64,000 nucleotides of DNA from an uncultured Nitrosopumilales archaeon (GTDB taxonomy: Archaea; Thermoproteota; Nitrososphaeria; Nitrososphaerales; UBA213): NCBI GenBank assembly GCA_964373125.1, contig CAYJSN010000008.1:4244-68243 (forward strand), read 5' to 3'. A program made the position numbers and the translations under genes. The stretch's first letter is position 1, and each line of letters opens with the position of its first letter. A model generated the notes under the pieces. The model was not told where the DNA came from and did not search any database. It worked only from the letters and a program-made list of their open reading frames with translations. Shown piece after piece: positions 31,943 to 58,579 of the stretch.

Positions 31943-33121
31943 TTATTCAACGAACGGGTCCTTCCAGCCCAAGATGAGGTCCGCGATCTCGGGCCGCATC
32001 AGGAGCTCCGGCGGCCTCTCACCGCTCGTCACCATCTGCCTCAGCTTCGTGCCGCTGAGCTCGAGCCTGTGCTGGGGATCGTGCGGGCATGTCTTTTCGC
32101 TCACAGTGCCCATGCAGACCTTGCAGTAAAAGAAGGCCGGGAAGAAGACCGGCTTTATCTCCAGGTCGGGGTAGTCCTTGAAGATCTCTTGGGCAGCGAA
32201 GGGGGGATAGTAAGAGCCAACGCCCGCGTGATCCCGCCCGACTATGAAGTGCGAGCAGCCGAAGTTCTTCCGCATTATCGCGTGCAGGATGGCCTCCTTC
32301 GGACCGGCGTAGCGCATCTCGGTGTGCAGGGTCACGAACTCGACCTTGTCCTGCGGGAAGTACCTGTCTAGCAGGGTCTCGTAGGCCCTGATGATGACCT
32401 CGTCCTTAAAGTCGCCGGCCTTCTTCCTCCCGATCAGGGGGTTGATGAATAAGCCGTCGAAGAAGTTCAGCACGGATTTCTGGAGGGCCTCGTGGGCCAT
32501 GTGGGGTATGTTCCTGGTCTGGAAGCCGACGACGGTCCTCCAGCCGTTCCTTCTAAATGCGTCCCTTGTCAGCGGGGGTGTCAGCCTGTGCGTCCGCAGG
32601 TCGCCGCCCTGTTGCCTGTCGATGAGATCGACCCTGCCACCGGCGAGCATCTCCCTCATGCTCATCGTCTTGGCCACGCCCGGGTGCGCCGTATCCTCGG
32701 TCTGGTAAACAGACTTGGCCATCTCCCGCCTGTCGAACCTGTAAACATCTTCGACATGCATGATCGCAAATATCCTGCCGGCCTCGTCCTTTATCGCAAC
32801 GTCGCGCGAGTCCTTCATCCCGGCCGCCGTGCGCTCGTCTACGTCCAGCACTATCGGCACCGTCCAGGCGATGCCATTTGCAAGCCTGCCCCGCCGGATC
32901 ACTTCCGCAAAGTCATGCTCGGGCAGGAACCCCTCGAGGGGGCTGAAGATGCCGTCGGCTATGTTCTCGATATCGTTGACCAGGTCACTGTCCACGGTTA
33001 TGCTCATCAGTTCCTTCGAGTCGTTCTGCGCCCGCTCCAAGGCCCTCCCTGAGAGGACCCGGTTCACAAGCACGCCGCCGTGGGGGGAAGGTATCCCACC
33101 GCTTTCGCTCAAAACTATCAC
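31943..33121 (-). CDS. sat: Sulfate adenylyltransferase (ATP sulfurylase)
   Basis: 392 aa from GTG (GTGA overlap with the cysH stop). PHGG, GFQTRNIPHMAHE, VGRDHAGVG, LSGTKLRQM. Confidence 0.9.
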   Translation of the reverse strand: MIVLSESGGIPSPHGGVLVNRVLSGRALERAQNDSKELMSITVDSDLVNDIENIADGIFSPLEGFLPEHDFAEVIRRGRLANGIAWTVPIVLDVDERTAAGMKDSRDVAIKDEAGRIFAIMHVEDVYRFDRREMAKSVYQTEDTAHPGVAKTMSMREMLAGGRVDLIDRQQGGDLRTHRLTPPLTRDAFRRNGWRTVVGFQTRNIPHMAHEALQKSVLNFFDGLFINPLIGRKKAGDFKDEVIIRAYETLLDRYFPQDKVEFVTLHTEMRYAGPKEAILHAIMRKNFGCSHFIVGRDHAGVGSYYPPFAAQEIFKDYPDLEIKPVFFPAFFYCKVCMGTVSEKTCPHDPQHRLELSGTKLRQMVTSGERPPELLMRPEIADLILGWKDPFVE

Positions 33122-33849
33122 TTTTTCTTCAGGGGGTTGAAGTGTAGGCCGCACTCCTTGTGGGCGTCCTGCTCCCACCACCACCTTCCCGCCCTGAGGT
33201 CCTCGCCCGGCTTTACCGCCCTGGTGCAGGGCTCGCACCCTATGCTCGGGTATCCTGTGTCGTGCAGCTTGTTGTAGGAAATATCGTTCTTCCTTATGTA
33301 GTCCCAGACCATCTCCCAGGTCCAGTCGGCAATCGGGTTCATCTTCACCATGTTGCCGTGCCCGGCATCGATCTCGATCTTCTTCGTCGTCGCCCTGGTG
33401 GCGACCTGATCCCGCCGCAGGCCGGTTATCCATGCGTCTAACTTACTCAGCGCCCTGTTCAGCGGATGGACCTTCCTTATCTCGCAGCAGAGCTTCCTGT
33501 TATCGACGCTGTGGTAGAAGAGGTTGAGCCCGTGCTGCCTCACCATGTCCTCGACCTCCTTCTGGTCGGGGAAGTAGATCTCGATCGTAATGTCATATTT
33601 GTCGCGTATGGTGTCCATCACATCGTAGGTCTCTTGGTTCAGGCGGCCGGTGTCCAGCGTGAAGATCTTTGCGTCCTTCCTGATCTTCGCGAGCATGTCT
33701 ATCACCACCACATCCTCCGCGCCGAAGCTCGAGGCAAGCGCGACCCTTGGGTGGAAGGTATCCAGTCCCCACCTGAGGACCTCCTGGGCGCTCTTGTCCT
33801 CCATCGCGCCGGAGATCTTCTGGATTTCTTCCGGACTCATCTTAAGCAT
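33118..33849 (-). CDS. cysH: Adenylylsulfate (APS)/PAPS reductase, FeS-type CysH
   Basis: 243 aa from MLKMSPEE. SFGAEDVVV PP-motif. Cys pair RKLCCEIRKV plus GCEPCT (FeS-type signature). C-terminal ECGLH. Confidence 0.9.
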   Translation of the reverse strand: MLKMSPEEIQKISGAMEDKSAQEVLRWGLDTFHPRVALASSFGAEDVVVIDMLAKIRKDAKIFTLDTGRLNQETYDVMDTIRDKYDITIEIYFPDQKEVEDMVRQHGLNLFYHSVDNRKLCCEIRKVHPLNRALSKLDAWITGLRRDQVATRATTKKIEIDAGHGNMVKMNPIADWTWEMVWDYIRKNDISYNKLHDTGYPSIGCEPCTRAVKPGEDLRAGRWWWEQDAHKECGLHFNPLKKK

Positions 33850-33945
33850 GGCTCCCCCAACCCAAGTATCTCTTATAATTATTGCTCCTCTTGCACTGCG
33901 CTGTACGAAATCCTCTCTGCATTTATCTGAGAGCATGGATGGCGG

Positions 33946-50131: not shown

Positions 50132-52969
50132 TTGTGGGACAGCGCTCAATCCAAGCCGAGGCAGGACATAGGCAACTACATAAGGATCGGACTCTTCGCG
50201 CTCATAGCCCTGGTAATTTTTGGCATAGTGAGCAGCCAGTCGGTCGTGATCCTGCTCAACGTTACCGAGTTTCAGGACCTGTTCGTCAAGCCGCTCTACT
50301 ACGCGATACTCTCCGGGCTAATCCTTGCATCGATAGCCCTGATCAGGGTGGACGTACGGCACCGGGAATCCATGGTCTGGTGGATCATCTCCGCCGGCAT
50401 CTCTTTTTTGAGAAGGGAGGCGCCTGAACAAGGCAAGGCTTCTTTCAGGTACCGCGATTTCAAGTTGGGCAGGGGACATTTTGCGCTGTGGCAGGTCACA
50501 AAGGTTCTGCTCCTTGCCCCGATCTTCAGCAACCTGATGTTCGGAATGGCAACCCAGTACGTGCTGGACGGCAAAGAGCTAGGACTTTCATCGCTCTCCC
50601 AGATATTCTACCTGCCGTTCATAACGTCGCCAAACCCTGCCATCGCCGAAGAGCTGGTGCTGCCGATGATCCCGTCGCTCACGCTGCTGATACCCCCGGT
50701 ACTCGGCGCGATCGGGATCAGGCTCGTGCTCTACGTCGGCGTGCGCAACATAGCCCACATAATCTCCGGCTACCTTTCCGATGCGGCGGAGGGCAGGCCA
50801 AGGTTCCTCTTCTACATAGCCGTGCTTGAGATGATAGTAGGCACAGGTCTCTTCTGGTCGTCCTTCAACATGTTCTTCCAGTCGAACATAGACTACAACA
50901 CCAAGTATGCAATAGCCGGCACCGCGCTCCTAGGTGCTGCATTTGTGGCATGGTCGCTGATAGACAGGAGGAAGTCCAAGGTGATACTCATGTTCCCGTC
51001 AAGGAAGAACATCTACCTGCGCCTCCTCACCATAATCTCTATAGCCGTTGTGGTGGGCTCGATAATGGCCGTGAACAACAGCATAGCCGATGCGAGGAAG
51101 ATCGAGTGGCTGGGGCCGTACACTGCCCAGCAGATCGTGGTCAACAGGTACTTTGCGGACCTCGACCAGGTCAAGGAGGTGAACTACGACATCGAGCTCT
51201 TCGCGACCCCGCCAAGCAGCACCAAGGAACCCACGGAAGAAAGTAAGGAGATACTCTCAAAGGTGCGGCTCTGGGACTGGAGCGCGGCCTTTGCCAAGCT
51301 GAAGCCCGAGATCGGGCTCATACCGTATGTTGACTTTTACGACTCGGACATAATCCGGTTCAACGGCACGCTGTACTGGAGCGCCGCGATGCAGCCGATA
51401 CTTCCGTCCAGCGTAACCGCCGAGAACCAGTGGTACTCTGAGCACCTGGTCTACACCCACGTGCCGAACGGGTTCCTGATGCTCGACGCCCACGACGGCG
51501 ACATAGTGAACAGCAATAACTTCTTCGATCAGAGAAGGATATACTACGGGGAGGGCGGGCTGCTCAGCGAGGTCTGGTCCGCCTACCCGGCCGACAGGCA
51601 GACGAGCGACGAGCTTGACGGATACTTTTACAACGGCGATGGCGGGATAACGGTTCCCCCGCCCCTGAGCTGGATGTTCGAGCCCAACTTCCTGCTCTCT
51701 TACCCGGATGAGGCCATACACATAATGCGCTACAAGGACGTGCACGACAGGATGCAGCTGCTATATCCATACTTTGAGTATGACTTTGGGAACAGACGCG
51801 TGGACGTGCTTCCCGTCACCGACGGCCCCAACACATACTGGCTGATGCCGCTCATTGTGCGGCTGGATACCGACCGTGTGCCGTGGAGCGCCGACAACCC
51901 GATGTACAGGCTGGTTGGCTACATACTGATCGACACCTACGACGGAAGCCACCAGATACTGGTAAAAGGCGAGGACTTCTTCACGGAGATTTTCGTTGAT
52001 CAGTACCAAGAGCACGTCACGCGGGAGATCCCGTCCTGGCTTCACAACCAGCTGAGGTACCCCGAGGAGCTGTTCTGGTGGAAGGTAAACATGTACAACT
52101 TCTACCACGTGACCGACACATCAACATTCATAGTCGCAAAGGAGTTCTACGAGATACCCTCCGGGCTGACCCCCTACTACATATTCGCCAAGCCGCAGGG
52201 CTTCGAAAAGATCGAGTACATCTCGCTCCTCTCCCTCGAGCTGAGGGGAGCTGCGGGGAGGAACCTTGCCGGCTACATGGTGGTGCGGAATGACTATCCC
52301 TACGATGGCGATCTGGTATTCTACGAGGTTTCGCTCGAGTCGGAGGTGAAGCTGCTAGGACCCAGCGCCGTCAGGGAGGCGCTCGACAGGGACCCGGATT
52401 TTGCTCAGCTGAAGACCCTGCTGAGGAACCCGAGAATCGGCGATAACATACTCTACAGGATAGGCGACCGCGATGTCTACTTCATACCCGTATACACGGC
52501 CGGGGCCGGTGGCGTGGTAACCCAGCTGGGCACCATCGCGGCCGTGGGCGCGACCTTCACGGGCGAGTATTACGTTGGTCTGGGCGATACCGCTGAGAAG
52601 GCCTTCAACGCCTACCTTGCTAAGCGTATCGGCATTAAGGCGCCTCCGGGCCTGCCGACGCTGCTTGACCGTGATGCAAAGGTACGCAGTCTCATGCAGC
52701 TGTTAGAGGAGAGAGGGGTCGATGTTGCGAGGCCTGCGTCGATATCGGTCCCGCTGACATTCTTGGAGGGAGAGCTGGAGTACGGCGACGAATCTGATTT
52801 CGAGGATGTGAAGCTCGGGATCGACGAGTTTATCAACACCTGGGTGAAGGAGGGCGGGGCCAAAAGGATTCTGGCCTGGGAGGAAGAGGAGGCGATCAAC
52901 TTCGGCGTTGCGACTGTTGTAGACGGCATAACCGAACTGCACTACGTGGCGGTCAAGGTAGGCAGATAG
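50132..52969 (+). CDS. UPF0182-family large membrane protein
   Basis: 945 aa, TTG start. About 7 N-terminal TM segments plus a large soluble part with LRYPEELFWWKVNMYNFYHV, RNLAGYMVVRNDYPYDG, GDNILYRIGDRDVYFIPVYT blocks typical of UPF0182 as I recall it. Confidence 0.75.
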   Translation: MWDSAQSKPRQDIGNYIRIGLFALIALVIFGIVSSQSVVILLNVTEFQDLFVKPLYYAILSGLILASIALIRVDVRHRESMVWWIISAGISFLRREAPEQGKASFRYRDFKLGRGHFALWQVTKVLLLAPIFSNLMFGMATQYVLDGKELGLSSLSQIFYLPFITSPNPAIAEELVLPMIPSLTLLIPPVLGAIGIRLVLYVGVRNIAHIISGYLSDAAEGRPRFLFYIAVLEMIVGTGLFWSSFNMFFQSNIDYNTKYAIAGTALLGAAFVAWSLIDRRKSKVILMFPSRKNIYLRLLTIISIAVVVGSIMAVNNSIADARKIEWLGPYTAQQIVVNRYFADLDQVKEVNYDIELFATPPSSTKEPTEESKEILSKVRLWDWSAAFAKLKPEIGLIPYVDFYDSDIIRFNGTLYWSAAMQPILPSSVTAENQWYSEHLVYTHVPNGFLMLDAHDGDIVNSNNFFDQRRIYYGEGGLLSEVWSAYPADRQTSDELDGYFYNGDGGITVPPPLSWMFEPNFLLSYPDEAIHIMRYKDVHDRMQLLYPYFEYDFGNRRVDVLPVTDGPNTYWLMPLIVRLDTDRVPWSADNPMYRLVGYILIDTYDGSHQILVKGEDFFTEIFVDQYQEHVTREIPSWLHNQLRYPEELFWWKVNMYNFYHVTDTSTFIVAKEFYEIPSGLTPYYIFAKPQGFEKIEYISLLSLELRGAAGRNLAGYMVVRNDYPYDGDLVFYEVSLESEVKLLGPSAVREALDRDPDFAQLKTLLRNPRIGDNILYRIGDRDVYFIPVYTAGAGGVVTQLGTIAAVGATFTGEYYVGLGDTAEKAFNAYLAKRIGIKAPPGLPTLLDRDAKVRSLMQLLEERGVDVARPASISVPLTFLEGELEYGDESDFEDVKLGIDEFINTWVKEGGAKRILAWEEEEAINFGVATVVDGITELHYVAVKVGR

Positions 52970-53533
52970 ATGCTTCTGGTTGTCGACAACCTTTCCTCGT
53001 ACCTAGACGATCTTGTCCGCTCACTGGCGGAAACCGGTGCGAGCTGCGAGGTGAAGCGATACGACGCCCTCGGCGGATCCAACCTGAACAACTATGACGG
53101 CATAATAATTTCCGGCAGGATGAAGAACGACGGGTCTGTGAATGTACCGAACATGCGCGTCGTGAAATTCGCACACGAAAACAGCAAACCGCTGCTGGGC
53201 ATCTGCTACGGTGCGGAGATCACCGCGCTTGCGTTAGGCGGTTCCCTCCGCAGGCTGGAGGAAAGAGTGACCGGCGAGCGGGCGGTGGCCATCAGGAGAA
53301 GCAACCCCCTGACCAGCAAGAAGACGGTACGCGTATTCGAGAGCCACGGCTACTACATTGCCCGCCTGCCGCAGGAGTTTTCTGCGCTGGGCGACTCTGA
53401 GAGCTGCAGGTACGAGTTCGTAGGCCTTAACAAAAAACCGATCTTCGGCACGCAATTTCATCCGGAGGTCAGGGTCGGTGGCGGCGACGGGCTGGAGATC
53501 ATCGGCAACTTCGTCAGACTGACCAGACGCTAA
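52970..53533 (+). CDS. Stand-alone class I glutamine amidotransferase
   Basis: 187 aa. ATG directly follows the UPF0182 stop (TAGATG). PLLGICYGAE nucleophile elbow, GTQFHPEV His-Glu. Confidence 0.8.
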   Translation: MLLVVDNLSSYLDDLVRSLAETGASCEVKRYDALGGSNLNNYDGIIISGRMKNDGSVNVPNMRVVKFAHENSKPLLGICYGAEITALALGGSLRRLEERVTGERAVAIRRSNPLTSKKTVRVFESHGYYIARLPQEFSALGDSESCRYEFVGLNKKPIFGTQFHPEVRVGGGDGLEIIGNFVRLTRR

Positions 53534-55103: not shown

Positions 55104-55436
55104 CTACAGATCGCTGAACTCCTCGCTCTCGAGCGTCTTTACCCTCGCCTTGGAGCCTGCCTCGTTTAGTTTCGTCCTTAACCAGTCCTCAAATTTCTCG
55201 TAAAAGGTCCAGCCCATGGCATGCATGAAGCTCTCGTACACATCGGCCATCTTTGCTATGAAGGTGACATCCATGGTTACGGTGAAGAAGGTCCAGCCCA
55301 TGTACCTAGAGGGCTCGCCTACCTCCAGGCCGCTCTTGTCGTGCACGCCCCACTCTGCGCGTGCAATTATCTCCACGATCTTCCTCCTGTCGGATTCGTA
55401 ATCGAGGGTGATTATTTCGAAGACCTGGCGCTCCAA
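55104..55436 (-). CDS. Hypothetical protein with duplicated MGWTF motif
   Basis: 110-aa ORF. No recognised domain. Contains a perfect 15-nt internal direct repeat. Confidence 0.5.
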   Translation of the reverse strand: MERQVFEIITLDYESDRRKIVEIIARAEWGVHDKSGLEVGEPSRYMGWTFFTVTMDVTFIAKMADVYESFMHAMGWTFYEKFEDWLRTKLNEAGSKARVKTLESEEFSDL

Positions 55437-55546: not shown

Positions 55547-56053
55547 TTGGTCACAAAGAAGGGGATCGCGCTCACCGCGGCCATAATTGGAGGGTTCACC
55601 GCCGCCAGTTTTCTGGTATACTTTGTGCCAACATCGCCCGCGAACGAAGTCATGGTCACCTACACCGACCCGGCCACAGAACTAGCCTTTGCCAGGGAGC
55701 GCGGCGAAGCAATACTGAACGAGTTCGACCTGACGTTCGAAATGTGGAAGAGCAACGAACTGGAGCGCGGCGAATTTGACGAGCGCGCAGGCCCGGCGCT
55801 GGAACAGATAGACTCGCTCATCCAAGAGCTGCACAAGAGCAAGCCGCCCGAGGCGTGGGTTCAGAGCTACTTCCTCTACATCCAGGCGCTGGAAAGCTAC
55901 AGGTCCTACTTCGAGCAGGCCGGCGAGTATGTTGCGTATGCGTCCCAGGCTGATGCTGATCCCGAACGAGTCGAAGAGCTGCGGGACTCGATCTCGGAAT
56001 CACTGGCCAAAGCCGATGACCTGCTCAGACAGTCAGAGGACGCGGTGCCCTAG
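55547..56053 (+). CDS. N-terminally anchored helical protein (paralog of 31434-31934)
   Basis: 168 aa, TTG start. TM IALTAAIIGGFTAASFLVYF. Ectodomain alignable to the 31434 protein (W...GEFDE / W...SDEFIE; GEYV / REYV). Confidence 0.5.
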   Translation: MVTKKGIALTAAIIGGFTAASFLVYFVPTSPANEVMVTYTDPATELAFARERGEAILNEFDLTFEMWKSNELERGEFDERAGPALEQIDSLIQELHKSKPPEAWVQSYFLYIQALESYRSYFEQAGEYVAYASQADADPERVEELRDSISESLAKADDLLRQSEDAVP

Positions 56054-56105
56054 GAATATTATAAAAAAAATAAAAAGATGGTGGGGGAAGCAGGCTGCGG
56101 CGGGT

Positions 56106-56131
56106 GGACGCGCCCTGTCATTGGTGCGTCC
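56106..56131 (+). terminator. Hairpin followed by T-run between convergent genes
   Basis: ggacgcgcc-ctgtcatt-ggtgcgtcc (9 bp including one G-U), then tttatt. 52 nt after the stop of 55547-56053. Confidence 0.35.
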
Positions 56132-56132
56132 T

Positions 56133-56756
56133 TTATTCGTAGCCGTCTATTGGAATCTTCATCCCGAACTTCCTGATCGTCTCGTCCTTCAGTCTGGCGA
56201 AATGCTCCACCACGCTCCAGTTTCCCTCAATTACCGCTGCAACGCCCGGGGGAACAAACTTCCTCCAGTCCTCCGGTGCCCTGCCCAGCACTTCTTTGTA
56301 CATCAGCTCCCTCACATAGGTAGCGGAGACGGCCTTCCTCTGCCCGCGCTCCGGGTTCAGGCCGAACTTCTTCAGGAGGAGGTACTCGCTGTAGTTGCCC
56401 GTGTAGGACTTCCTCGGCTCCGGCACCTGCGCTATGATCCTGTCCCTCAGCTCGCGCGCCTTTTCGCTGAATCCTACCGGGATGCCCGCGATGGTCCTGC
56501 CCTCGTAATCCTTGTAGGGCTGGCTGAACGTGTACGTGTCGAGGATGTGGATTCGGTCCCCAAAGACCGAGCGCAGCATCTCCCTCCTGGCCTCGAAGCT
56601 GAAGGGAAGGCTTCTGGTGTTGACTTCAACCCCGTCCTTCCTCCTGAAGATCACGGGGAAGACATAGACACCGCCCTCCAGCATCTTCTCCCTGATTATT
56701 TCCTCGTGGGACCTGGTTACCGGGTTTACGTGCGCAAGCCACATTATCGATACCAT
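56133..56756 (-). CDS. Small HxxH-type nucleotidyltransferase resembling the catalytic core of ATP sulfurylase
   Basis: 207 aa. WLAHVNPVTRSHEE vs Sat GFQTRNIPHMAHEA. VFPVIFRRKDG vs FINPLIGRKKAG. VSATYVRELM vs LSGTKLRQMV. Confidence 0.6.
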   Translation of the reverse strand: MVSIMWLAHVNPVTRSHEEIIREKMLEGGVYVFPVIFRRKDGVEVNTRSLPFSFEARREMLRSVFGDRIHILDTYTFSQPYKDYEGRTIAGIPVGFSEKARELRDRIIAQVPEPRKSYTGNYSEYLLLKKFGLNPERGQRKAVSATYVRELMYKEVLGRAPEDWRKFVPPGVAAVIEGNWSVVEHFARLKDETIRKFGMKIPIDGYE

Positions 56757-56941
56757 GGGGCAGCTCTAGGTCATTCAAATTAATTTAAACCATTTGGGAT
56801 CGGATCCTATGCGACAGCGAAAGAATCTGGAATGAATTTGGACAAACCGATAAATATCCAGCAAGCAAAAGTTGCTTAACTGGCCATGATACTTGCTTTT
56901 GGATCATACAGATTTATATCGACAGAACTCATAGGCGGAGA

Positions 56942-58579
56942 GTGCAAGTGAACGACCGGACTCGCCGCTTCATTGCAGGCCTCGCTGCAGGAAGCATAGC
57001 TCTGGCAATCTCATTATTTCTTCGAACCTTCGCCGGCGGATTGTTCATTCCTGAAATTGCCGCTCAAACGGTCTTCTCCCTGACGCCGGGCGCAGTCGAG
57101 TCTCAAGCGGTGGCCACGCTGGGGTCTCTGGCCAAATACTCCGCATACATTGGTGCGGTCGTGGTTAACCTTCTTATCTATGGAGTTCTCGGCGTCCTCC
57201 TGCATGGAGCGCATAGAAGACTGGCTGGGAAGGGGTACCTTGTTAATGTCTTGCAACTTTCACTCATATCTTATTCGATCCTGTTTGTAGCGGGCCTGAT
57301 CCTGCTGGAGCTCACAGAGGTTCTAACACAGCCGGTTCCAATTCAGCTTGCGGCCATATACCTTCTTCCACCTCACATAGCCTTCGGCTCCGTTCTATGC
57401 TATGTTTTCCGTCGCCAAGTCCCTCCACCGGAGCTCACGCATCAAAATAATCCTCTTCCGGAGCAAAGGACTGACTCCGATAGAAGACGGTTCCTCCGCG
57501 TAGCAGTGGCGGGTGTGATCGCATCGGCGTTCCTGTTTTCCGGATTCGATCTTTTCTTACCCAGGTCCGCACAGCCAGAGCGAAGAGTTTTACAGCCAGC
57601 GCAACCACCAAAATCTGCTTCAACTTCTGAAGACGTGTTTGCTGGCCCGAGGCTTGCCGAGTTTACTGCATCGGAAGTGACGCCCAGCGATCGATTCTAC
57701 ACCGTGGATGTGAACGTCATGACCCCCGTGGTCAACGTGAATGCCTGGAAGCTCAGGGTAAAGGGACTGGTAAACAATACTTTGGAACTAACATACGAGG
57801 AGGTAAGGTCGCTGCCGGCGGTCGAAGAGTATGCCACGCTGGAATGCATCAGCAACAAGGTAGGCGAGGACCTCATCAGCAGCGCACTTTGGAAGGGTGT
57901 TCTTCTGAAAGAGATACTAGAGAAGGCTCAGGTCAAGCCCGAGGCAAAGTACATCGTCTTCAGATGTCATGACGGCTACGATGTGGGAATACCCCTGGAG
58001 CGGGGCCTTGAAGGAACCATACTGGCTTACGAAATGAACGGCGCCGCTCTCCCTCTGGGGCACGGCTTTCCATTAAGAGCGATCGTCCCCGGGCTCTACG
58101 GGATGATGAATGCCAAGTGGATAACCGAGATCGAACTTGCTGACAGCGTCTATGAAGGTTTCTGGCAGAGGGAGGGTTGGAGCAACAACGCCGAGTATCA
58201 GATACATTCTACGGTCGTCCTTCCGGGCGGAGCGCTCAGATCAAGATTCGGTGCCTCTGCGCCGTCGAGGGTCGTCCTCGGCGATAAGGTGCCGGTAGCC
58301 GGCATAGCATTCGCAGGGGACAGGGACGTATCGAAAGTCGAGGTCAGCACGGATGGAGGGAAGAGCTGGGAAGAGGCCATGATCAAAGAGCCGCTTTCGA
58401 AGAATGCGTGGGTTCTGTGGGCTACCGAATGGAACCCGCCAGCGGAAGGCAGGTACAGAATCATGGTCAGAGCAACCGACGGGACGGGAAGAGTCCAGGC
58501 AGCAGAACAGCGACAGGCATTTCCGAGCGGCTCGACTGGCTATCACGCAGTCGAGGTAACTGTGGAAGCACCGGCTTAA
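56942..58579 (+). CDS. Polytopic sulfite-oxidase-family molybdopterin oxidoreductase
   Basis: 545 aa, GTG start. About 4 TM segments, internal SDRRRFLRVAVAGVIASAF, Mo-ligand context YATLECISN, GFPLRAIVPGLYGMMNAKW, C-terminal Ig-like dimerisation domain. Confidence 0.85.
   Translation: MQVNDRTRRFIAGLAAGSIALAISLFLRTFAGGLFIPEIAAQTVFSLTPGAVESQAVATLGSLAKYSAYIGAVVVNLLIYGVLGVLLHGAHRRLAGKGYLVNVLQLSLISYSILFVAGLILLELTEVLTQPVPIQLAAIYLLPPHIAFGSVLCYVFRRQVPPPELTHQNNPLPEQRTDSDRRRFLRVAVAGVIASAFLFSGFDLFLPRSAQPERRVLQPAQPPKSASTSEDVFAGPRLAEFTASEVTPSDRFYTVDVNVMTPVVNVNAWKLRVKGLVNNTLELTYEEVRSLPAVEEYATLECISNKVGEDLISSALWKGVLLKEILEKAQVKPEAKYIVFRCHDGYDVGIPLERGLEGTILAYEMNGAALPLGHGFPLRAIVPGLYGMMNAKWITEIELADSVYEGFWQREGWSNNAEYQIHSTVVLPGGALRSRFGASAPSRVVLGDKVPVAGIAFAGDRDVSKVEVSTDGGKSWEEAMIKEPLSKNAWVLWATEWNPPAEGRYRIMVRATDGTGRVQAAEQRQAFPSGSTGYHAVEVTVEAPA

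Follow-up and report, generated by a model that had tools for sequence, protein, structure and literature searches.

The 64-kb stretch of DNA analysed here (the window; uncultured Nitrosopumilales archaeon, contig CAYJSN010000008.1) carries on its minus strand a 207-aa open reading frame (ORF), the target of this study, which is transcribed divergently from a gene for a membrane-anchored molybdoenzyme of the sulfite-oxidase (SUOX) family. A first-pass annotation made from the sequence alone had taken the target for a miniature enzyme derived from ATP sulfurylase (Sat), a bona fide copy of which is encoded elsewhere in the window, and had proposed for it a role in sulfur-oxyanion or related adenylylation together with the SUOX-family enzyme. 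While the ORF, the Sat with the motifs quoted from it and the divergent membrane-bound neighbour were all found as that annotation had described them, the nearest known relative of the target is, over its full length, the archaeal NadM-type nicotinamide mononucleotide (NMN) adenylyltransferase (NMNAT), and its place beside the SUOX-family gene is an isolated coincidence. The features of the locus are collected in Table 1.

Table 1. Features of the target locus and of other parts of the window referred to in the text (window coordinates).
Feature	Position	Strand	Remarks
Target gene	56133..56756	-	207-aa soluble NadM-like (HIGH-superfamily) nucleotidyltransferase; unnamed Nitrososphaeria-specific family
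Modified nucleotide-binding signature	56706..56732	-	A8-H9-V-N11-P12-V-T14-R-S-H17; equivalent to G-R-F-Q-P-F-H-x-G-H of NadM (hhalign pairs NMNAT G9..H18)
Second signature, ISxT-type	56310..56339	-	R140-K-A-V-S-A-T146-Y-V148-R149; equivalent to R-x-x-Y-S-G-T-E-I-R of NadM (HMMER, hhalign)
Family-specific C-terminal extension	56136..56216	-	residues ~181-207; ends in hairpin T-I-[KR]-x-F-G-M-K-I-P-x-D-G-Y
TATA-box-like TTTAAATTA	56781..56789	-	centred ~29 nt 5' of target ATG; read in sequence
T-rich run TTTTTATTTTTTTTAT	56061..56076	-	57-72 nt past target stop codon, between convergent genes; read in sequence
Antisense ORF	55929..56783	+	284 aa; covers the whole target gene and is longer than it
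Intergenic spacer	56757-56941		185 nt, between target and SUOX-family gene
TATA-like TTTATAT of SUOX-family gene	56913-56919		23-29 nt 5' of its GTG
SUOX-family neighbour, divergent, membrane-anchored molybdoenzyme	56942..58579	+	Oxidored_molyb E 1.2e-45 and Mo-co_dimer (Pfam)
Small ORF	55547..56053	+	168 aa; N-terminal hydrophobic segment
Small ORF	55104..55436	-	110 aa
Bona fide Sat	~31943-33100	-	PUA_2 and ATP-sulfurylase, E 1.5e-86; adjoins PAPS reductase; ~23 kb from target
UPF0182 and amidotransferase genes	50132-53533	+	945-aa membrane protein, then 187-aa class I glutamine amidotransferase

When the minus-strand frame of the target was compared with seven orthologues, the third position of the codon was found to carry most of the differences (97-136, compared with 28-45 for positions 1 and 2), indicating that this frame is under purifying selection. 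The start codon agrees with that of the orthologues, which open M-x-S-I-M-W-L-A-H, and the target has 34 close homologues of equal length, every one of them labelled 'hypothetical protein'. The target ORF is a genuine gene under purifying selection. The antisense ORF that covers it was considered as the true gene in its place and rejected as a shadow ORF, since both the codon-position pattern and the homologues back the minus-strand frame; a naive longest-ORF gene caller selects this antisense ORF instead of the target gene.

An AlphaFold2 model of the target (pLDDT 90.9, pTM 0.87) was compared with the PDB using Foldseek, and ranks 1-13 were all occupied by archaeal NMNATs (E 2.5e-7 to 1.2e-6, target TM 0.71-0.74), followed by bifunctional NadM-Nudix proteins, phosphopantetheine adenylyltransferase (PPAT) and NadD. 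In hhalign, the family profile matched a profile of 20 canonical archaeal NMNATs with a probability of 99.35% (E 5.4e-21) over 151 columns, covering template positions 1-159 of 171, while the close clade alone gave 97.9% (E 3.8e-13) and the family profile against one Nitrosotenuis NMNAT gave 97.3% (E 1.8e-11). A 19-member profile run against PDB sequences matched the MJ0541 NMNAT (1f9a; E 2.7e-8, residues 5-166 of 168) and bifunctional NadM (2qjt; E 2e-5), the next family being TagD at E 0.19, and neither Sat nor PPAT was matched in that search. Among 5.8 billion proteins, only two matches fell beyond the family, one to a member of the cytidyltransferase family (E 3e-7) and the other to an NMNAT-annotated protein of Altiarchaeota (E 5e-6). 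The window protein by itself matched a single NCBIfam model, that of archaeal NMNAT (NF002243), and this weakly (E 0.027, 14.1 bits, cut-off 127); in Pfam it had no match even at E<=1, including PF01467 (cut-off 21 bits), a family which 8 of the 19 family members did match at E<=1 (best E 3.5e-8).

NadM-like elements were found by HMMER and hhalign to be spread over the whole length of the target. N-P-x-T-x-x-H pairs with Q-P-F-H-x-G-H of NMNAT, P51-F-S-x-E-x-R with N-P-F-[ST]-x-x-E-R, Y-T-G-N with Y-S-G-N, the family motif R-K-x-[IV]-[SA]-[GA]-T-x-V-R with R-K-E-Y-S-G-T-E-I-R, and W164-x-x-x-V-P (W-R-x-x-V-P) with W-x-x-L-V-P (W-E-x-L-V-P). Within the family, H17, R57, T119 and R140 are invariant and V148 nearly so. 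The protein has the hallmarks of the HIGH/ISxT superfamily, namely a Rossmann-like core, T14-x-x-H17 after strand 1 and S144-A-T146-x-V-R149, and its description in the first-pass annotation as a small nucleotidyltransferase with HxxH-type and ISxT-type motifs was right. Two other identities within this superfamily were considered and rejected, a RibL-like or TagD-like one since TagD reaches only the above E value of 0.19 in the PDB profile search, and that of a PPAT, given the lack of a profile match and the presence of NadM-specific C-terminal motifs.

The target departs from canonical NadM at positions that are otherwise fixed. From the sequence G-R-F-Q-P-F-H-x-G-H, invariant in the 20 canonical NMNATs, it keeps the Pro and the last His only, with NMNAT Arg10 replaced by His9, His15 by Thr14 and the Gly by Ser or Ala, so that the family signature reads T-x-[A/S]-H where NadM has H-x-G-H; T14 is invariant in the close clade and H17 across the whole family. 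Likewise, NMNAT-invariant G37-S38-S39, D76 and W83 (P0090 numbering) pair with K40-D41-G42, Y81 and L103 of the target. The family also carries an insertion of ~20 residues relative to NadM, at about residues 85-101, and its C-terminal extension has no NMNAT counterpart, the hhalign match stopping at residue ~180. In the AlphaFold2 model this extension forms a hairpin with strands 193-196 and 199-202, and K200 and P202 of the hairpin are invariant even in 28%-identical members.

Distant family members (P0056, P0041, P0068, P0084; L056 133-708; 28-35% identity) retain the C-terminal motif F-G-[FL]-K-[IVF]-P, and one, P0056 (194 aa, from a metagenomic contig of 922 bp), keeps GHFQPFHKGH together with the family C-terminal motif, which ties NadM and the target family together; a member of this type looks like an intermediate between the two. 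A metagenome-assembled genome (MAG) of Nitrosotenuis encodes, on a 5.3-kb contig, a canonical 164-aa PF01467 protein annotated as NMNAT, so that ammonia-oxidising archaea (AOA) probably have a normal NadM too, and on these sequences the target family looks like a paralogue of NadM rather than NMNAT itself. In the tiny sample of 788 kb of related DNA, a tblastn search for canonical NMNAT found the target family alone, and nothing usable was found in the literature on NadM/NMNAT in Thaumarchaeota, Nitrosopumilus and Nitrososphaera.

When 1.84 billion representatives were searched exhaustively with HMMER, only 54 clusters came up for the family, many of them fragments. A genome scan with alignment A1, whose patterns may under-sample the range of the family, found 36 loci, all of them in Nitrososphaeria (Nitrososphaera, Nitrosocosmicus, Nitrosopumilaceae, Nitrosopelagicus). 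A metagenome scan with four distant members returned two short contigs only, with uninformative neighbours. The family gene X heads a conserved co-directional AOA array of the form (Alba)-X-ilvE-GFO/IDH/MocA oxidoreductase-(Trm112)-hexapeptide acetyltransferase at ~38 of 45 loci, which span Nitrososphaeraceae and Nitrosopumilaceae (within L004-L046; e.g. L004 7615-11282); X and ilvE are 20-74 bp apart at all but three of the array loci. The class IV, ilvE-like aminotransferase of the array scores 406.8 bits with the branched-chain transaminase equivalog, whose cut-off is 279; the best model for the oxidoreductase is archaeal UDP-GlcNAc 3-dehydrogenase and that for the acetyltransferase the NeuD/PglB/VioB sugar acetyltransferases, both below cut-off. 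Downstream of the array lie DUF354 in Nitrososphaeraceae and, in Nitrosopumilaceae, a membrane protein judged by eye to be MraY/WecA-like; a 388-aa Rossmann-like protein is also often found behind the array. In the window's clade the array was not found near the family gene. The array may reflect either function or old synteny.

The proposed derivation from Sat was examined by direct comparison with the Sat of the window, which contains GFQTRN, FINPLIGRKK, GRDHAG and LSGTKLRQ. Its listed ORF (496 aa) overlaps a cysH-like ORF, and the true Sat start is therefore probably near 33100; the gene lies directly downstream of the phosphoadenosine phosphosulfate (PAPS) reductase gene (31943-33936, minus strand, for the pair). 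BLASTP of the target against this Sat gave a 14-residue match at E 0.18. With hhalign, the family profile aligned to it over 30-33 columns, comprising the HxxH motif and the next strand, at a probability of 0.3-0.7%; the Sat side of this comparison was one sequence, and one NMNAT sequence under identical conditions gave 97.3% against 0.7%. The window protein had no match at E<=1 to the Pfam ATP-sulfurylase family (PF01747, cut-off 24.3 bits), four close relatives matched it below threshold (12.6-18 bits, residues 10-43 only, best E 0.002), and Sat was absent from the Foldseek top 50. As the first-pass annotation had noted, the target is without the PUA-like domain and the GRDHAG loop of Sat; it also lacks the Q-x-R-N motif, of which its A-H-V-N-P shares the Asn alone, and the R-K-K-x-G match is confined to the target's clade and this Sat, the family-wide loop being [FY]-P-V-[IR]-F-x-K-x-G-x-E. 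The motif sharing with Sat on which that annotation relied is real, but is the generic HxxH / ISxT signature of the whole nucleotidyltransferase superfamily, and the derivation drawn from it was not borne out, the full-length profile and fold matches going to NadM. In a contig of a related MAG (L012), the family gene and a 77%-identical Sat (1374-2525) are only 7.5 kb apart; in the window the distance is 23 kb.

The SUOX-family neighbour has 4-5 hydrophobic segments in its N-terminal ~207 residues, ahead of the molybdopterin domain, and falls far under the equivalog cut-offs for SorA, SoxC, SorT and MsrP; two twin-arginine-like motifs were observed in it, T-R-R-F-I-A at ~7-12 and R-R-R-F-L-R at ~181-186. 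A tblastn search for SUOX homologues near relatives of the target was negative at all 46 loci examined, among which the contigs of one ~70%-identical relative (P0005) were counted, and no SUOX gene was present in the seven contigs of four further relatives of ~70% identity. The neighbours of these five relatives were instead a tRNA synthetase with QueC, a methyltransferase with a radical SAM protein, a peptidase M3 and an ECR1_N protein. The sole other SUOX-adjacent copy, in another assembly, encodes an identical protein and presumably comes from the same organism. With SUOX absent from the loci of relatives and the only other copy identical, the adjacency is private to this genome, and a functional tie to the SUOX-family gene, or a part in sulfur-oxyanion metabolism, finds no backing. 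The two observations that the first-pass annotation had named as decisive against its own proposal, namely full-length top matches to a characterised non-Sat family and an unconserved linkage to the oxidoreductase, were thus both made, and the fallback it had offered, a generic cytidylyltransferase-fold enzyme in coincidental linkage, was essentially correct.

The intergenic spacer holds one TATA-like element for each gene and so looks like two independent archaeal promoters. From the usual geometry of archaeal promoters, TTTAAATTA is probably the target's own promoter, and its position suggests that the mRNA of the target is probably leaderless or near-leaderless. The T-rich run TTTTTATTTTTTTTAT probably acts as an archaeal terminator. 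Two small ORFs lie beside the target (Table 1); neither has a Pfam family, and no homologue of either was found in the 46 related loci. Elsewhere in the window, the UPF0182 gene is followed without a gap by that of the glutamine amidotransferase, and no tRNA gene and no Rfam family at gathering threshold was detected in the 64 kb (1-64000).

The explanation that we consider likely is that the target is a divergent NadM paralogue, a HIGH/ISxT nucleotidyltransferase with a probable acceptor other than NMN and with no specific tie to Sat or to the SUOX-family gene; that it is NadM-derived and unrelated to Sat or SUOX function can be held with good confidence. It would be a soluble, monocistronic protein of ~23 kDa with the cytidylyltransferase-like Rossmann fold, having arisen from NadM within or before Nitrososphaeria. 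We infer a reaction in which an NTP, most likely ATP, and a phosphate-bearing acceptor would yield NMP-acceptor and pyrophosphate, probably by in-line attack on the alpha-phosphate. In this reaction H17 would serve as the surviving second His of HxGH, T14 could take the role of the Thr of the PPAT motif TxGH in assisting H17, and R140 and R149 of the ISxT-type motif may hold the phosphates. TxGH is a working variant of the signature in PPAT. The NadM half with both nucleotide-binding signatures would have been kept, the NMNAT-invariant positions that line the NMN pocket replaced, and the insertion and the conserved C-terminal hairpin added to the NadM core. Since the NMN-site positions of NadM are replaced and new conserved elements are present, NMN held as in NadM is probably not the acceptor, and nicotinic acid mononucleotide (NaMN) or another ribonucleotide-like or phosphorylated metabolite may be envisaged. 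With respect to the acceptor alone, a compound other than NMN, left unspecified, is our tentative choice; NMN or NaMN seems unlikely, a sugar phosphate or polyol phosphate connected with the AOA array distinctly so, and a sulfur oxyanion scarcely credible, while there is little reason to expect a non-catalytic protein. It is quite possible, though less likely than not, that a re-tooled NadM paralogue found throughout Nitrososphaeria, with its T-x-x-H signature, rebuilt pocket and Lys-bearing hairpin, nucleotidylates a non-NMN acceptor to give an unrecognised cofactor or activated intermediate of AOA, possibly connected with the array.

Several points weigh against this explanation. The activity of the target, its nucleotide donor and its acceptor are all deduced from sequence and model comparison, and with the first His and Arg10 replaced, catalysis may be impaired or abolished. 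The argument from the NMN pocket rests on an hhalign register that is uncertain near the insertion of the target, and it takes NMNAT D76 and W83 to be the counterparts of D80 and W87, which touch NMN in the enzyme of M. thermautotrophicus. The sole named NadM of AOA, furthermore, lies on the 5.3-kb MAG contig mentioned above, and the target could still be the working NMNAT in some lineages, including that of the window. This last possibility, in which the target would be the lineage's NMN/NaMN adenylyltransferase, whether as a rapidly evolving orthologue of NadM or as a NadD-like isozyme, specific for NaMN, of the de novo NAD pathway, is one to which we give a minor but real chance. NadM is by far the nearest family and matches over the full length; the target still has the essential second His, the PF-x-x-E-R motif and the Arg/Lys-bearing ISxT-type motif; its gene resembles a housekeeping gene in being present across Nitrososphaera, Nitrosocosmicus, Nitrosopumilaceae and Nitrosopelagicus and in standing alone among variable neighbours in the window's clade; and the small sample of related DNA contained no canonical NMNAT. 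All of this would suit a working NMNAT, whereas the canonical NadM annotated in an AOA MAG, the replacement of the NMNAT-invariant GSS, D76 and W83, the score of 14 bits against the 127-bit NadM cut-off, and an insertion and an invariant C-terminal K-x-P hairpin that are foreign to NadM speak against it. The target might instead bind nucleotides without catalysis, as an inactive NMNAT-like sensor, regulator or chaperone, given that T14 and H9 stand in place of the first HxGH His and of NadM Arg10. This is very improbable, as TxGH functions in PPAT, strong constraint acts on H17, R57, R140 and position 149 (Arg/Lys), and one distant member keeps the full HxGH.

The AOA array offers a rather improbable alternative, in which the target would activate a sugar phosphate, a polyol phosphate or an amino-sugar precursor for a cell-envelope glycan pathway. 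Enzymes of the same fold that act on sugar or polyol phosphates are known, among them TagD and the adenylyltransferase domain of HldE, and the family gene stands co-directional with, and 20-74 bp 5' of, the ilvE/oxidoreductase/(Trm112)/acetyltransferase genes in most loci, with best models for two of these pointing to UDP-GlcNAc and to sugar acetylation and with DUF354 or the MraY/WecA-like protein downstream. However, both of these matches are under cut-off, and the aminotransferase is a housekeeping branched-chain transaminase by its equivalog score, so that the array may be a mix of unrelated genes; gaps of 20-74 bp leave space for separate leaderless promoters, the window's clade keeps the gene without the array, and the affinity of the sequence is to NadM and not to TagD. 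For a miniaturised, Sat-derived adenylyltransferase of sulfate, sulfite or a related oxyanion working with the SUOX-family enzyme, there remain the collinear local likeness to the window's Sat (N-x-x-[HT]-x-x-H-E followed by P-[VL]-I-x-R-K-K-x-G), the sub-threshold PF01747 matches of four close relatives over residues 10-43 (best E 0.002, 18 bits) and the Sat lying 7.5 kb from the orthologue in L012. These are outweighed by the hhalign probability below 1% over 30-33 columns, by the lack of Sat among the Foldseek top 50 and the PDB profile matches, by the missing Q-x-R-N and GRDHAG, by an RKK match that is clade-specific and not family-wide, by the absence of SUOX at 46/46 related loci and in the other contigs of close relatives, and by the separate TATA-like elements of the two genes in the spacer; the proposal is largely refuted and deserves almost no credence. 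The reading of the target as a divergent NadM paralogue is the one we retain.

The outcome is deflationary for the first reading of the locus, which contains neither a miniature sulfurylase nor a sulfur-oxyanion module. What remains is a conserved gene of AOA, organisms important in the global nitrogen cycle, and of their relatives, annotated as hypothetical everywhere. Its product is a nucleotidyltransferase derived from NadM in which catalytic residues and residues of the acceptor site have changed, and it represents an unnamed family missed by current Pfam and NCBIfam models. The identity of the substrate could fill a gap in the NAD or cofactor metabolism of AOA or reveal a new activated metabolite. 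The family is useful for annotation and of moderate specialist interest, and holds no surprise in kind.

In comparison with known systems, the target shares with Sat (PF01747) the broad HUP-type nucleotidyltransferase class, an HxxH motif whose second His follows Ala or Ser, and the [IL]-S-x-T motif. The target is about half as large as the catalytic and PUA domains of Sat together, gives no significant profile or fold match to Sat, and has neither a PUA-like domain nor the sulfate-site motif Q-x-R-N nor a GRDHAG loop. PPAT (CoaD) shares the superfamily fold (Foldseek E 3e-6 to 1e-4) and likewise has Thr for the first signature His (TxGH), but it gave no PDB profile match, and the W-x-x-L-V-P and Y-S-G-N elements of the target are not PPAT features. 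The bifunctional NadM-Nudix proteins (Synechocystis / Francisella, 2qjo, 2qjt) resemble the target in their N-terminal NMNAT domain (profile E 2e-5, Foldseek E 2.4e-6), while the target has no Nudix domain and the motif differences from NadM apply equally. Archaeal NadM itself (MJ0541, 1f9a; M. thermautotrophicus, 1ej2/1hyb; PF01467; NF002243) is likewise small, single-domain and soluble, has the same fold and is collinear with the target across the NadM core, and the two share Q/N-P-x-[HT]-x-x-H, P-F-[ST]-x-x-E-R, Y-[ST]-G-N, R-K-x-x-S-G-T-x-[IV]-R and W-x-x-L-V-P. The target differs from it in an identity of only 16-20% in Foldseek alignments, in failing the NF002243 and PF01467 thresholds, in its T-x-[AS]-H, its His for Arg10 and its lack of GSS, Asp76 and Trp83, and in possessing both the insertion (~20 residues, at ~85-101) and the C-terminal hairpin, an extension of ~27 residues in which K200 and P202 do not vary. 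The target family and canonical NadM probably coexist in AOA.

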